Shown here: positions 36,201 to 42,200 of the stretch, piece after piece | Layout: each line of letters begins with the position of its first letter | Position numbering within the stretch: the stretch's first letter is position 1 | Assembly (NCBI GenBank): GCA_947478395.1 | Contig: CANJVR010000002.1 | Span: forward strand, 96,001 to 160,000 | Direction of reading: 5' to 3' | Length of the DNA stretch: 64,000 nt | DNA from: Opitutia bacterium | GTDB taxonomy: Bacteria; Verrucomicrobiota; Verrucomicrobiia; Opitutales; Opitutaceae | Program-made: the position numbers

Positions 36201-39200
36201 ACGCCTCGAACACCGCCTGGCGGTCGGCGCGGTCCGGCGCCGCGCGCCAGCGGGTGTAGCCGGACGCATCGAGGCGCGCTTCGGTGCCGTTGGCGAGTTT
36301 GATGGTGGGCCAGGGGACGTCGGCGTTGGAGAGAATACCGTACACTTCGCTTGGAGTCTCGGTCACAAGCCCGGCGCCCGAGAGTACGTTTTCGGCCTCG
36401 GCGCCAAGCGTGTGCGGCGCGGCGCGGAGAATTTCCATGAGCGAAAAACGGTACTGGGCTAGGCGCGGCTCGGCGGTGAGAAAGCCGTGGATTTTGGCGT
36501 CACCGACGGTCAGGATTTCGGGGTTGATCCAGCTCGTGGCGCGGGAGAACTCCGTTTCGAGGAGACTGATTTCTTGGGAGTGTTCGAGATTGGCGGCGAC
36601 GCGTTTGTCTTCGTCCCCCTTGAGCGAACTATAAACGGCGAGGCGGGTGAATTGCAGGGTGAGCGTCTGGATGTAGTCCAGTGCGGTGAGGAGCGAAGGC
36701 GGGTTTTGGCCGAGCGTGCCCTCGAAGGTTTTGATTTTCGGCAGACCGGCCGCGAGCTGGTTCTTGGCGGTGGTCCACGCCGCTTCGTTGGGATAAAGGA
36801 GCGTCAAGTCCCACGTCGTGGCCGGATCGACCGCGGCGGGCGTCGCGGCCGCGGCCGCTGCGGCGCGAACCGAAGGGGTTGAAAGGGGGAGCAACGCGAG
36901 CAGAGCGGACAGCAAGCGAGATTTCATTGGTGCGCCACGGTGCGGGTTTTCACGGTGGAAACGAGGCGAAAAATATCCCGGCGCGATCTTAAGGCCGTGC
37001 GGGAGGGGTGCGTTCACGCACTTTTATAGCATCGGCCCGCATGTCGGGTGAGGGCACCCCGCTCACCGTGGGATTTCGCGGCCTCAGTTGTTAAAACGGA
37101 AGAGAGCCACGTCGCCGTCGGCGAAGACGTATTCCTTACCTTCGAGCCGGTATTTGCCGGCTTCGCGGGCGGAGGCCACGCTGCCGAGACGCGTGAGGTC
37201 GGCGTACGAAACGATCTCGGCCTTGATGAAACCCTTTTCGAAATCGGTGTGGATGACGCCTGCGGCCTGCGGCGCCTTCCAACCTTTTTTAATGGTCCAC
37301 GCGCGCACTTCTTTTTCTCCGGCGGTGAAGTAAGTCTGGAGCCCGAGCAAGTTGTAGGTGCCTTTGATCAGGGACGAAACGCCCGAGTCCTCGACGCCGA
37401 GATCCTTGAGAAACGCCTTGGCCTCCTCCGGCGAGAGATCGATCAATTCGGACTCGATGCGAGCGCTGATCGGCACGTAGGCAGCGTCGTGATGAGCCTT
37501 CACGAAGGCGGCGACTTTCTGGACAAACGGATTTTGCTCGGCGGTGGCGAGATCACCCTCGGCAACATTACACGCGTAGAGCACGGGCTTGGCCGTCAGA
37601 AGCTGAAAAAGTTTCAACAGCGCGGTCTCCTCGGGTGTGGCGGTCAACGTGTTCGCGGGCAGGCCCGCGTTGAGATGAGGGGTGAGGCGCTCAAGCAGCG
37701 CGATCTCGATGATGGCTTCCTTGTCGCCGGACTTGGCCTTTTTTTGAGTCTTGTCGATCCGCTTGGTCACCGCGTCGAGATCGGCGAGGATGAGCTCGGT
37801 CGTGATGACCTCGATGTCACGCACGGGATCGACGCTGCCCATGGTGTGGATGATGTCGCCGTCCTCGAAACAGCGCACGACTTGCACGATGGCGTCGACT
37901 TCGCGGATCGTGGCGAGAAATTGGTTGCCGAGGCCCTCGCCCTTGCTGGCGCCGGCGACCAGACCGGCGATATCGACGAATTCGATCGCCGCGGGAATGA
38001 CGACGCTGGTCTTGGCGATTTTCTGCAGAACGTACGCGCGTTCGTCAGGCACGACTACGACGCCGACGTTGGGCTCGATGGTGCAAAACGGATAGTTAGC
38101 GGCCTCGGCTTTGCGGGAGCGGGTGAGGGCGTTGAAAAGGGTGGACTTGCCTACGTTGGGCAGACCGACGATGCCGGCTTTGAGCATAAGGCGCGGACGT
38201 TCTCAGTGCGGCCGGGAGTCGGTCAATGGAAAAGGCCGCTGGTGGTGACGTTGTGATCGAAGAGCATCACGGCCTCCGCCCATCCCGCTTAACGTCCAGC
38301 CAAATTACCGCGGCGATAATAAAATGGAGGTGATCATAAATGTAGGCTCGCGCGCTTGCGTGCTGACTTTCGATTCGGATGGGTTCTCTCATCTAAAACC
38401 CGTTAAAAAGAATCGCGGGTCCGGGACTGGGGGCTTGACAGAGCGTGCTGTGGCCGGTGTGTTTTTCCTCTTTTTAACGCAAGCACCTCTCCGAAAACAC
38501 CGTCATGGCACTCAAAATCCGTCTCACCCGCATCGGCGCCGTTCACCAGCCGCATTACCGCGTCGTCGTCGCTGAAGCCCGTTCCCGCCGCGATGGCGAT
38601 CCGGTTGATTCGATCGGCACCTACGATCCCCGCGCCAAGGCCAATGGTTTTAAGGTCGATATCGCTCGGGTCGATTACTGGCTGTCCAAGGGCGCAAAGC
38701 CGACGGACACGCTGCACGCGATGATCAAGCGCGCCCGTCGGGCTGCGCCCGCCGCACCGGTTGCCGCCAGCTAAAGTTCGGCAGGCTTTTCCGCCACGGG
38801 CGCAAAGACGCGAAGGCAGACTTCGCCCTAAAAAAATTGGCCTCGGATTTTCCGGGGCTTTTTTATTTCCAACCATCGTTACGACCATGTTGCGCATCGA
38901 TGTCCTCACGCTCTTCCCGCGGATGCTCGACGGGTTTTTGACCGAGAGCATTTTGGGGAAAGGAATCGCCGCGCAACACCTGGCGGTCGCGGTGCACGAC
39001 TTGCGCGCGTGGTCGACCGACAAACATCGCACCGCGGATGACCGGCCGTTTGGCGGAGGGGCAGGGATGGTGGTGAAGCCCGAGCCGGTGTTTGCCGCGA
39101 TCGAGCAACTGCAGACCCCGGGTTGCCGGCGGATTTATCTCACGCCCGACGGAACGCCGCTTTCGCCCACACTGGCGCACGATCTTTCCCGGCAAAAGCA

Positions 39201-42200
39201 TCTGATATTTCTGAGCGGACACTACGAGGGCATCGATCAGCGCATCCGTGATGGTGTGATCGATCAGGAGATCAGCATTGGAGATTATGTGCTGACGAAC
39301 GGGACGTTGGCGGCGGCGGTGGCGATCGATGCGTTGGCGCGTTTTATTCCCGGCGTGCTCGGTGAGGAAAAGTCATTGACGCACGAATCCTTCACCAACA
39401 AGTTGCTCGACTTTCCTCAATACACGCGTCCCGCCGAATTCCGGGGCATGTCCGTTCCGGAGATTCTTCTCTCGGGAAATCATGTCGAAATCGAGAGGTG
39501 GCGGCACGCGCGACAGGTGGAAAAAACTCGTTTGGTCCGACCCGATTTACTCAAATAACTCTTCTTAAAGCCATGAACCCGATCATTAGCCAAATCACCG
39601 CCGAGCAGGTGAAGAAAGATATTACGCCGTTCAAAGTCGGCGACGGCGTGCGCGTGCACACCAAAGTTCGCGAGGGCGACAAGGAACGCATCCAGATTTA
39701 TTCTGGCATCGTCATCGCGCGCAAAGGGCACGGAATTCATGAATCGTTCACCGTCCGCCGTATCAGCTACGGCGAGGGCGTGGAGCGCGTATTCCCCGTG
39801 AACTCCCCGAACATCGAGAAGATCGAGGTCGAGCGCGAGTCCGAGGCGATGAAGGCGCGTCTCTATTATCTTCGCCGCCGCACCGGCAAAGCCGCCGTGG
39901 CCGTCAAGGAACGCGAGAACCGCGTCGAGACCGCCGCCCCAGCCGCCGCTCGCTAATACGAGGCGTTCATCGGAGCGGTGCGCTCACTTTTACCCTAAGC
40001 GAGCCTCTCAAGGCTCGCTTTTTTTGTGCCCAAAAAATCAATTATTCCGGCCGGTCGTTTCCGTTTTTCCAGAAATTTAGCTATAACATGACTCTGCAAA
40101 CTCTCCTTCTCGCCAAAGCGGCCAACCAAGCTCGTGGTCTCGCGATCGACGCGGTGCACGCTTCGTCCTCCGGCCATCTCGGTCTCCCGCTCGGCTGCGC
40201 CGAGATCGGCGCCGTCCTCTACGGCCACGCGCTCGCGCACAATCCCGAGCGCCCCCGTTGGCTCAACCGCGACCGTTTCGTACTTTCCGCCGGCCACGGC
40301 TCGATGTTTCTCTACAGCTGGCTTCACCTCAGCGGCTACGATCTGCCAATCGAGGAGGTGAAACGTTTCCGTCAGCTGCACAGCAAGACTCCCGGCCACC
40401 CGGAATTTCACGACACACCCGGGGTCGAATGCACCACCGGTCCGCTCGGCCAAGGGATCGGCAACGCCGTCGGTATGGCCATGGCCGGCAAGATGGCCGC
40501 CGCCCGCTTCAACACCGCCGAGCACGAGTTGTTCGACTATCATGTCGTTTGTCTCGCTGGCGACGGCTGCATGCAGGAAGGCGTGGCGATGGAGGCGGTC
40601 GCGTTCGCCGGTCACCAGAAACTCGACAACCTGATTCTCATCTACGATTCGAACGACGTCACACTCGACGCGATGGCGAGCAAGACGCAGAGCGAAAGCG
40701 CCGCCCAGCGTTTTAAGGCCATCGAGTGGGACGTGCAGACGATCGACGGTCACGACCTCGCCGCGATCCTCAAGGCTTTCAACCGCGCCAAGCGCTCGAA
40801 GTCCGGCAAACCCCAGCTCATCATCGCCAAGACGATCATCGGCAAGGGCATTGCTGAGGTGCAGGGCACCGCGAAGGGCCACGGCGAGGGTGGGGCGAAA
40901 TTCTCCGACAGCGCCCGCGCGTCGCTTGGCCTGCCGGCGGATCAGCACTTCTTCGTCAGCGACGACGTTCGCGCCTATTTCGCCGGCCACAAAGCCCGGC
41001 TCATGCGCGTCTGTAATCGTTGGCACAAAATGCTCAAAGCCTGGCGCGCCGCGAATCCGGACAAGTCCGTGCTGCTCGATTCTGCCAGCGCGCACCCGAG
41101 CGCCGCGCATCTGCTGGAGAAAATTCCGCTCTTCGCGCCCGACGTGAAATTGGGTGGTACCCGCGCGGCTGGTCGCGACGTGCTTCAGCCGCTCGCGGCC
41201 GAACTTCCGTTGCTCATCGGCGGCAGTGCCGATCTTTATGGCTCGACGCTCAACCTGATCGCGAATGCGGCCGACTTCGATCCGGCCAACCGCAGTGGTC
41301 GCAACATTCGCTTCGGCATTCGCGAACACGGTATGGCGGCCATCGCCAACGGCGTGGCGTACGACGGACTTTTCCGTCCGAGCATCGCGACGTTCCTTGT
41401 ATTCGCCGACTACTCGAGACCCGCGATGCGGCTGGCCGCGCTGTCGAAGCTGCCGGTGATTTATATCTACACGCACGATTCGATCGGAGTTGGGGAGGAC
41501 GGACCGACGCACCAGCCGGTGGAAACTATTTCCGCGCTGCGGCTCATTCCGAATCTCGATGTGATCCGTCCGGGCGATCCCGAGGAAACCGCCGGCGCCT
41601 ACGCGGCGGCCCTCGAGCGCTCCGATGGCCCGACGTTGATCGCGCTTTCGCGCCAGGCGGTGCCGGTCCTCAACGAAATTCCACCGCACATTCGTCGGGC
41701 TGGAGTTTTGAAGGGCGGATATGTCGCGTTGCAGGAAACGGCTCCACTCACGCATCTTCTCATTGCGACCGGCAGCGAACTGCATCTCGCGCTCGCCGCG
41801 GCCAAGGAACTCGGCGTCGGCACGCGCGTCGTTTCAATGCCGTCGTTCGAGCGTTTCGATCGGCAAACCGCGGAGTATCGCGAAAGCATCCTTCCGCCGT
41901 CCTGCCGCGCCCGTGTCGCGGTCGAGGCGGGCGTGTCGGATCTCTGGCGAAAATACGTCGGACTCGAGGGCAAAGTTGTCGGCATTGATCGCTTCGGCAT
42001 CAGCGCGCCGGCGCCGCTCGTGTATAAGGAACTCGGCATCACCACCGAGGCTATCATCGCTGCCGCGCGTTCGTTGTAACCAGGCAACGGCGTCATCGTT
42101 TTCAGCCCGCTCCGTCGCGAGCGGGCTTTTTTGTGGGCTGCAATGATTCGATCGACCGGGGTGGCCGTAGGATGCGACGTCGGTTCTCTCTTTCAATGCG

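Follow-up and report, generated by a model that had tools for sequence, protein, structure and literature searches.

An Opitutaceae bacterium and many of its relatives, all with genomes of ordinary size, seemingly build the 30S ribosomal subunit without RimM, RimP and Era, three factors thought to be nearly indispensable outside bacteria with tiny genomes. In this genome (98.8% complete, 3.3 Mb) curated models and profiles built here were both negative for all three, in agreement with the joint absence claimed in the genome-wide survey's note. Judging from sequence, the genes are probably really gone, having been lost stepwise, and the subunit would mature via the factors that were retained. 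The RimM gap appears to be wider than that note had it, as it extends over the PVC phyla searched. The three losses are neither one event nor confined to one class. RimM is absent throughout the PVC phyla searched and RimP is absent from most of these phyla; Era persists in a minority of Verrucomicrobiia and in many genomes of the other classes, and was lost several times. The named nearest relatives of the genome (Opitutaceae MAGs and isolates), together with the genome sizes in the family (2.4-6.1 Mb), lead us to infer that the organism is free-living.

Empty slots in the Opitutaceae genome

The window, i.e., the whole stretch of 64,000 nucleotides that was analysed, contains the rpsP-trmD-rplS locus, in which rpsP, trmD and rplS were identified with NCBIfam equivalogs above cut-off.

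37084..38187, minus strand: ychF, GTPase-family ATPase, divergent left neighbour (TIGR00092, 498.7 bits)
38505..38774, plus strand: rpsP, ribosomal protein bS16, 89 aa (TIGR00002, 98.5 bits, cut-off 45.3)
38775..38886, plus strand: rpsP-trmD intergenic gap, 112 nt, the rimM position in E. coli (from sequence and E. coli gene order)
38887..39558, plus strand: trmD, tRNA m1G37 methyltransferase, 223 aa (NF000648, 291 bits, cut-off 220)
39573..39956, plus strand: rplS, ribosomal protein bL19, 127 aa (TIGR01024, 141.8 bits, cut-off 90.7)
40088..42079, plus strand: transketolase, right neighbour (TIGR00232, 721 bits)

RimM was sought as an N-terminal barrel (PF01782) plus a PRC barrel, usually encoded between rpsP and trmD. 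The 112-nt gap is too short for this gene of ~170 aa, which needs ~500 nt, and the rimM slot is indeed empty; the remaining gene order is that of the E. coli trmD operon (rpsP-rimM-trmD-rplS) with rimM excised. Elsewhere in the genome RimM was not found either: TIGR02273 had no match at E<=10, PF05239 reached only E=1.36, and the RimM profile built here gave at best 8.9 bits in an unfiltered six-frame search (137.6 bits for E. coli RimM). A hairpin scan marked a single terminator-like hairpin inside the gap (38839-38859); the scan returned 5 terminator-like sites against 2.7 +/- 1.4 in shuffles, hence the evidence for a hairpin is weak, and the overall folding of the gap was no better than that of shuffles (z=-1.1). 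The neighbouring ychF was ruled out as Era, the Era model giving only 27 bits against the 498.7 bits of TIGR00092.

RimP was defined by PF02576 plus PF17384, and its gene usually lies ahead of nusA. Neither domain matched the genome at E<=10. A profile of divergent planctomycete RimPs, which recovered each left-out member at 90-177 bits, reached at best 16 bits in an unfiltered six-frame search, and no RimP was thus found. The gene upstream of nusA is DUF2851, so that the head of nusA-infB-rbfA is empty of rimP, as reported; the order of the E. coli operon rimP-nusA-infB-rbfA is otherwise retained, and DUF2851 or other unrelated genes precede nusA where E. coli has rimP. No RimP match was obtained among the 126 ORFs that lie upstream of nusA in 18 of 20 stretches. 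DUF2851 was the only slot occupant folded, the other evidence for absence being sequence-based. The fold sought was ~150 aa, KH-like plus Sm; the predicted one (pLDDT 90.6) is nuclease-like plus HhH-glycosylase-like. Foldseek gave no match at E<=0.001 for DUF2851 as a hidden RimP; the 50 rows listed by VIA-align included no RimP, RimM or Era, which by itself is not decisive.

Era was defined as a protein of ~300 aa that has a G domain and, after it, a type II KH domain. In this genome TIGR00436 gave nothing above cut-off (the best match was Der), the Era profile built here matched only G domains of other GTPases in an unfiltered six-frame search, a KH-only Era profile found nothing under E=0.18, and the top GTPase matches fit other families by length and domain layout; no Era was found. 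The stretch on contig C5 reads 7TM-HD, ybeY, DUF502 and then a RecO-like ORF. There is no era in it, as had been stated, but this slot is weak evidence, because the RecO-like end has no Pfam or PDB match and the Era genes of Verrucomicrobiota adjoin neither ybeY nor recO (0/20 and 0/30 loci).

All three models matched in 10/10 bacterial control genomes. With curated models, custom profiles, gene order and positive controls taken together, the triple absence in the genome and its family holds. RbfA, RsgA, RsmA and YbeY, named in the survey as kept, all scored above the Pfam cut-off in this genome, to which the results for the last three refer; RbfA is also present in 101/101 Verrucomicrobiia and in 5/5 further PVC genomes. 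Furthermore, the genome encodes Der- and Obg-type GTPases (Der, ObgE).

Distribution of RimM, RimP and Era in PVC bacteria

Among 524 PVC genomes, RimM scored above cut-off just once, on a short contig that is probably foreign. None of 301 Verrucomicrobiota possessed it, bearing out the earlier statement for this phylum, nor did 51 Chlamydiota and 61 Omnitrophota genomes; the single match came from one of 111 Planctomycetota (genome G414), as a rimM-trmD piece near a contig start (locus L179, 1.9 kb) that was judged foreign by eye only. Of 73 loci, 56 had an rpsP-trmD gap of 6-215 nt, and rimM was visible in five non-PVC loci of the same set. Weak RimM matches in Verrucomicrobiota (10, E 0.008-0.1) and Omnitrophota (12, in 724-801-aa ORFs) were not matched by a 131-sequence RimM profile at E<=1. 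The one that was read looks like SecD in our own reading; BLAST gave no match that would identify such matches as EF-G or PNPase.

RimP was found in 1 of 301 Verrucomicrobiota genomes. This RimP_N-only ORF (genome G135), near a contig end and beside lpxD-lpxC, was judged a Bacteroidales-like contaminant; the named relatives of its lpxD neighbour are Bacteroidia/Bacteroidales at 73%. Save for this match, the statement that RimP was found in no Verrucomicrobiota searched stands. RimP was likewise not found in 51 Chlamydiota genomes. The 111 Planctomycetota genomes yielded 16 rows, 15 of them real; the other (L194) was dropped as an unrelated 520-aa ORF. Planctomycete RimPs have Pfam scores down to 22 bits and do not adjoin nusA.

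The survey's statement that Era occurs in no Verrucomicrobiia proved wrong, as 45 of 401 genomes of the class carry a full-length Era. These remained from 59 rows after 14 had been dropped as Der (454-552 aa, covering only model positions 2-178). In the sample of 301 Verrucomicrobiota, Era was present in 106 genomes, all among the 200 from other classes, and in 0/101 from the class of our genome; it was also not found in 74 genomes of families taken as its own order. Planctomycetota had Era in 8/111 genomes and chlamydiae in 0/5. In the searches across genomes, scoring was limited to candidates that had passed a pre-filter, and these numbered 6-8 per genome in the large Era searches.

The Eras of Verrucomicrobiia group in a single clade (SH-aLRT 96), the inner order of which resembles the NusA+IF2 tree; on the latter the Era label needs five changes, four of them forced by starred branches. 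This suggests, at the level of gene trees, that Era was inherited in the class and then lost repeatedly. In Era-positive Verrucomicrobiia, era sits among unrelated, varying neighbours and, given these neighbours and the low deep support in both trees, the gene may also have been transferred within the class.

Possible routes to a 30S subunit without the three factors

In the course of the stepwise loss, RimM would have disappeared around the time of the PVC ancestor. The loss of RimP would predate the separation of Verrucomicrobiota from Chlamydiota and would have been repeated in most planctomycetes. Era would have been lost afterwards on several occasions, one of them in the lineage leading to Opitutales. 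The three proteins would speed and order the folding of the 30S head, pseudoknot and platform without being part of the product. Maturation could then follow the parallel pathways seen in E. coli mutants, relying on those late factors that are kept (RbfA, RsgA, RsmA, YbeY and LepA), with a 16S rRNA bearing an unchanged Era site as substrate and probably at the price of slower assembly. By analogy with E. coli, RbfA is most likely the main stand-in, since its higher dosage suppresses the loss of rimM there (PMC9032327; PMC4509935) and its KH fold binds beside the site of Era. Era-depleted particles are described as going on by parallel routes, with the platform staying immature (PMC10582724). 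Nevertheless, redundancy alone may not suffice, because no known 30S factor suppresses rimP loss in E. coli (PMC9032327) and Era is reported as essential in this organism.

No change of 16S rRNA or S19 that tracks the loss of the three factors was found. In repertoires of the CPR type, rRNA helices are shortened in step with the loss of factors. The 16S rRNA gene of our genome is missing from its assembly; six Opitutaceae 16S rRNAs are 1558-1560 nt long with an intact 3' tail, and the tail GAUCACCUCCUU is intact in 30/30 rRNAs aligned. Screening the alignment columns of 31 rRNAs left just two candidates, positions 1081 and 1474, and neither is persuasive. The pair 955:1225 was rejected as a signature, being C:G in Verrucomicrobiota and Planctomycetota and U:A in the RimM-less chlamydiae and Omnitrophota. 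S19 His83, 16S A975 and 16S G1015, which we take to be the E. coli suppressor positions, are unchanged in Opitutaceae, and S19, S13, S12 and S5 of our genome had no obvious suppressor-like change relative to E. coli. As for S5, its suppressors in E. coli came from a strain mutated in both rbfA and rimP, and the defect that they relieve is that of rbfA (PMC4509935).

It is possible, though unlikely, that a real loss was paid for by PVC-specific replacements, a TIGR04137 protein for RimM and RimP and a longer uS11 partly for Era. The former would serve the head or decoding region, either by chaperoning RNA or as an additional ribosomal protein; in uS11, an N-terminal extension of ~90 residues would help to install the protein and close the platform. 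Our genome does encode this ~50-aa basic PVC signature protein (C2:92657-92809, minus strand; 90.5 bits, cut-off 50), which is reported to occur in every PVC member sequenced and in no other organism (PMC3444138), a range that fits the RimM gap, and which lies 86 and 462 nt downstream of era, on the same strand, in two loci of family f38. However, this is association only: of 50 Era loci from Verrucomicrobiota just 2 have it beside era, it adjoins none of the empty slots in our genome, no relative of it has a solved structure, its only Atlas look-alikes belong to its own family, and CPR bacteria also lack RimM and RimP, yet the protein is reported only from PVC. Binding to the 30S subunit is an unproven candidate function; the likely partner is RNA, as the protein and S19 are both basic. 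The uS11 of our genome has 213 aa with the Pfam domain at 103-212, uS11 clusters of 190-210 aa are mostly from Verrucomicrobiota, and Era speeds uS11 recruitment (PMC10582724), but the extension is largely low-complexity Ala/Pro/Lys. The same candidates would underlie a 30S pathway of PVC's own, which we regard as unlikely: the signature protein, which would chaperone RNA in the 30S subunit or reside there as a ribosomal protein, would have displaced RimM at the root, and extended uS11 and initiation without Shine-Dalgarno (SD) sites would then have permitted repeated dropping of RimP, even Era, in large-genome lineages. All three features are unproven as compensators.

It is very unlikely that the three proteins exist in forms that have diverged beyond the reach of sequence profiles or that were relocated and split. 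Drift and relocation do occur in PVC, as the planctomycete RimPs at 22 bits away from nusA illustrate, and the RecO-like gene escapes Pfam; but the divergent-RimP profile left nothing above 16 bits in our genome, the G domain of Era is conserved too well to have drifted beyond recognition, there is physically no gene in the rimM slot of 56 of the 73 loci, and the occupant of the rimP slot is predicted to fold as a nuclease-like plus HhH-glycosylase-like protein. Finally, it is highly improbable that Era was lost because SD initiation had been given up, the 16S tail guarded by Era mattering less without SD pairing: our genome lacks an SD signal (2335 predicted starts, 111 with SD vs 124 in the control window; 48/79 for E. 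coli as method control) and the SD excess is about none in 8 of 9 Era-negative Verrucomicrobiia and 0.08-0.17 in the four genomes with Era from the deep families f60 and f66, but the signal is also missing in four Era-positive genomes (f73, f77, f90), is kept by Era-negative planctomycetes and a chlamydia (0.18-0.23) and amounts to 0.14 in one Era-negative f11 genome, the rank test of Era vs SD gave p=0.12 (8 vs 9 related genomes, 42-68 genes each save our own), and the absence of RimM and RimP would stay unexplained.

Comparison with known systems

Stepwise loss with maturation via retained factors, the reading we prefer, has its closest experimental parallel in the E. coli rimM, rimP and era mutants, which likewise make 30S subunits without the factor and with RbfA present; these mutants are slow-growing or dead, whereas the lineages studied here are stable. 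In reviews, RimM is described as conserved and RimP as highly conserved among bacteria (PMC9032327), and a 2023 review regards the need for Era as overcome only in extremely genome-reduced groups (PMC10582724). The latter describes Era loss in Chlamydia and Dependentiae and a patchy Era in Planctomycetota, with which our 5/5 chlamydiae and 103/111 Planctomycetota without Era agree. Opitutaceae, like the other Verrucomicrobiia families that lack Era, do not have reduced genomes, and Era was lost more than once within this single class. A gap that spans a superphylum of large-genome bacteria, for which genetic tools exist, thus contradicts the view of these factors as conserved or dispensable in reduced genomes only. 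Moreover, rimM, rimP and era all belong to the bac120 set, so that PVC genomes systematically miss three of 120 standard markers.

The CPR has few cultured members. PVC bacteria, in contrast, make testable what a minimal 30S assembly set is and how the ribosome changes when Era is not needed. Culturable relatives offer a test bed for ribosome assembly without RimM, RimP and Era, and Era-positive and Era-negative sister families of one class are natural controls; in Verrucomicrobium spinosum, gene essentiality has been mapped with transposons and targeted knock-outs have been made (PMC12283558).

Joint near-absence of the three genes is already published for CPR, as is Era loss in Chlamydia; the literature searched contained no such statement for Verrucomicrobiota, and neither "Verrucomicrob" nor "Planctomycet" occurs in the main text of PMC12641178. 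According to that study (Amikura et al. 2025), rimM and rimP are found in 0.4% and era in 19.4% of CPR genomes, as compared with 94.9, 92.3 and 97.3% for rimM, rimP and era in non-CPR genomes. The same three genes are scarce together here as in CPR/Patescibacteria, with rimM and rimP absent and era mostly absent. CPR genomes, however, have 0.5-1.5 Mb and often also lack rbfA, der or obgE (PMC12641178), whereas the genomes studied here reach 3-10 Mb, RbfA is found in 101/101 Verrucomicrobiia, and the Opitutaceae genome, with its 3.3 Mb, keeps both Der and ObgE.

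The rpsP-trmD-rplS locus and the source genome

In E. coli, the 549-nt rimM gene is located between rpsP and trmD, whereas the Opitutaceae source genome (3.31 Mb, 9 contigs, 98.83% complete) has a gap of 112 nt at this place. The window spans C2:96001-160000 of this genome, and the three genes of the locus match their NCBIfam models over cut-off:

38505-38774, rpsP
38887-39558, trmD
39573-39956, rplS

The closest named relatives of this TrmD are Opitutaceae/Opitutae records (80-91% identity). Of 80 trmD loci surveyed, 73 also contain rpsP. The rpsP-trmD gap measures 6-215 nt in 56 of these 73 and 304-312 nt without a credible ORF in two; two others, both from Cerasicoccus, have unrelated inserts, eight have rpsP downstream of trmD, and five, all non-PVC, possess an intact rimM. 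A non-PVC Krumholzibacteria genome likewise has RimM between rpsP and trmD. The eight loci with rpsP downstream are from Puniceicoccaceae/Coraliomargarita-like records (L490, L491, L494-L499); counted from the trmD start, the distance to rpsP is ~1.6 kb.

The models TIGR02273, PF02576 and PF17384 gave no match at E<=10 in the source genome, PF05239 gave a single chance match, and TIGR00436 (Era) none over cut-off; in 10/10 bacterial control genomes the RimM, RimP and Era models all scored over cut-off. Unfiltered profile searches covered all 60,735 six-frame ORFs. The RimM profile (131 of 150 library representatives) reached at most 8.9 bits vs 137.6 for E. coli RimM, and the RimP profile (15 divergent planctomycete RimPs) 16 bits vs 90-177 in leave-one-out. 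All matches of the Era profile (30 Eras of the phylum's other classes) lay in G domains belonging to other GTPases; with its KH half, no match fell below E=0.18. The KH_2 matches were to S3 and, weakly, to longer proteins, e.g., NusA and PNPase. Curated models and custom profiles thus agree with the genome-wide survey's note that rimM is missing from this locus and all three factors from the genome; hidden homologues of RimM, RimP and Era appear very improbable beside these scores.

RbfA, RsgA, RsmA and YbeY, described in the same note as kept, are indeed all over their Pfam cut-offs. E. coli queries also revealed LepA, HflX, RNase III, PNPase, RNase R, S21, S18 and S6, but not Hfq.

Distribution in the PVC superphylum

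Because the samples consist of related genomes (for Planctomycetota, Chlamydiota and Omnitrophota, the phyla of genomes reached via named loci), all range counts mean "not found in those searched"; read in this way, RimM over cut-off is absent from 301 Verrucomicrobiota, 51 Chlamydiota and 61 Omnitrophota genomes and occurs in 1 of 111 Planctomycetota. The claim that no Verrucomicrobiota searched have RimM therefore stands; for RimP it holds in 300 of 301 genomes, the exception being a fragment beside lpxD whose named relatives are Bacteroidia/Bacteroidales. This RimP_N-only ORF of ~90 aa, a short RimP form, was rejected, as its Bacteroidales-like lpxD-lpxC contig (L021, G135:C48:1-1950) is likely a contamination of the Verrucomicrobiia bin. 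RimP was not found in 51 Chlamydiota, one of them scored only in part. Among 111 Planctomycetota there were 16 RimP rows, 15 of them real, none within 1.5 kb of nusA. These 15 divergent genes (within L180-L195) include several with a basic C-terminal tail.

Era is present in 106/301 Verrucomicrobiota. With class assignments that are approximate (partly deduced from loci with names and from how genomes group in trees), it was found in 0/101 genomes of Verrucomicrobiia in this sample, 0/47 and 0/23 in two families of another class, 0/3 named Lentisphaeria/Victivallaceae and 2/2 named Kiritimatiellia-type genomes. Outside the phylum, 8/111 Planctomycetota and 0/5 chlamydiae have Era. About 89 of the 111 planctomycetes lack all three factors. 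The control, RbfA, was found in 101/101 class genomes and 5/5 other PVC genomes. The gap in the 30S assembly set is real and wider than first claimed.

The Era claim is overstated. In a wider sample of 401 Verrucomicrobiia genomes, 45 of 59 Era-model rows are full-length Era, contradicting its reported absence from the class; the other 14 are Der. Full-length Era occurs in families f60 (6/6) and f66 (27/28), and further in f73, f77, f78, f84, f90 and f99; close relatives bear the NCBI name "GTPase Era [Verrucomicrobiia bacterium]". None was found in 74 genomes of f1-f8 and f83, taken as the source genome's own order from kinship labels and listing order. Of 14 Verrucomicrobiia Eras aligned (alignment A1; f66 and others), 8 have GQGA (GQHA once) in place of GxxG as their KH motif.

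The Verrucomicrobiia Eras form a single clade (20 rows, FastTree 0.985; 12 rows, SH-aLRT 96), which groups, unstarred, with Kiritimatiellia Eras. Of 37 genomes, 34 were placed in a NusA+IF2 tree, the other three having short or missing genes. There, Era is carried by the deep families f60 and f66 and by some members of one other clade, and Era presence requires five changes. Inheritance followed by repeated loss fits best; Era may also have been transferred within the class. A partial Era of Ca. Uhrbacteria (L517) groups loosely with the Verrucomicrobiia and Kiritimatiellia Eras (SH-aLRT 92, unstarred). PMC12641178 reports a gain of era by this group of CPR, for which PVC bacteria are a conceivable donor.

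Candidate compensation

The source 16S rRNA is absent from the assembly. Thirty 16S rRNAs of relatives and outgroups have an intact GAUCACCUCCUU, the tail to which Era binds, and no column convincingly divides factor-less from factor-bearing genomes. At the helix 31 position numbered 975 in E. coli, an Omnitrophota 16S (L329, G302) carries G, reportedly a rimM suppressor change in E. coli. S19 of the source genome retains His83, and a search there with E. coli uL30 gave no match. Its uS11 has an N-terminal extension of ~90 residues, long uS11 clusters being mostly from Verrucomicrobiota; uS5 has an N-terminal extension of ~55 aa and uS17 a C-terminal one.

G000:C1:368807-369457, minus strand, uS11, extended
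G000:C1:373240-373908, minus strand, uS5, extended
G000:C1:377008-377379, minus strand, uS17, extended
G000:C2:92657-92809 (L738:3658-3810), minus strand, PVC signature protein (TIGR04137), 3.2 kb left of the window, near a smpB-like gene
L026:2833-2988 and L037:1203-1358, PVC signature protein in two f38 loci, just downstream of era

The PVC signature protein reportedly (in a 2014 paper) binds nucleic acids. Together with the uS11 extension and the missing Shine-Dalgarno (SD) signal it is a candidate, unproven lead to compensation, and a PVC-specific replacement of the lost factors seems rather unlikely. No SD signal was found in the source genome (111 of 2335 predicted starts vs 124 in the control); the method recovered 26/30 annotated E. 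coli starts (score 0.61). Positions just upstream of the 2335 starts are C-rich and G-poor, and six Opitutaceae 16S rRNAs have kept an intact anti-SD tail despite the lack of SD enrichment. Loss of SD initiation as the driver agrees with the missing signal but is scarcely credible, the signal not tracking Era in 25 PVC genomes.

Probable stepwise loss and known systems

PMC9032327 and PMC10582724 describe RimM as chaperoning S19 and head folding, RimP as acting on the central pseudoknot along with S5 and S12, and Era on the h45 tail and uS11. In E. coli, extra RbfA compensates for rimM loss (PMC9032327, PMC4509935), and extra Era for loss of rbfA, rsgA or ybeY (PMC9032327, PMC10582724, PMC4509935). 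None of the three is a component of the finished 30S subunit; given this and the E. coli overlap, we favor as probable a real stepwise loss, after which RbfA, RsgA, RsmA, YbeY and LepA would carry maturation. The losses are established by sequence searches; we infer their timing and mechanism.

Our full-text literature search, covering neither figures, COG/GTDB tables, bioRxiv supplements nor subscription journals, returned no paper stating this loss for Verrucomicrobiota or PVC. Since rimM, rimP and era are all bac120 markers, COG or GTDB marker tables, figures or supplements may already display the pattern. PMC9032327, PMC3575805, PMC4509935, PMC2474590, PMC3444138 and PMC12283558 provide further background. 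According to PMC10582724, Era is missing only from Dependentiae, Chlamydia and most CPR and is patchy in Planctomycetota; scarcity of all three genes is reported for CPR (PMC12641178).
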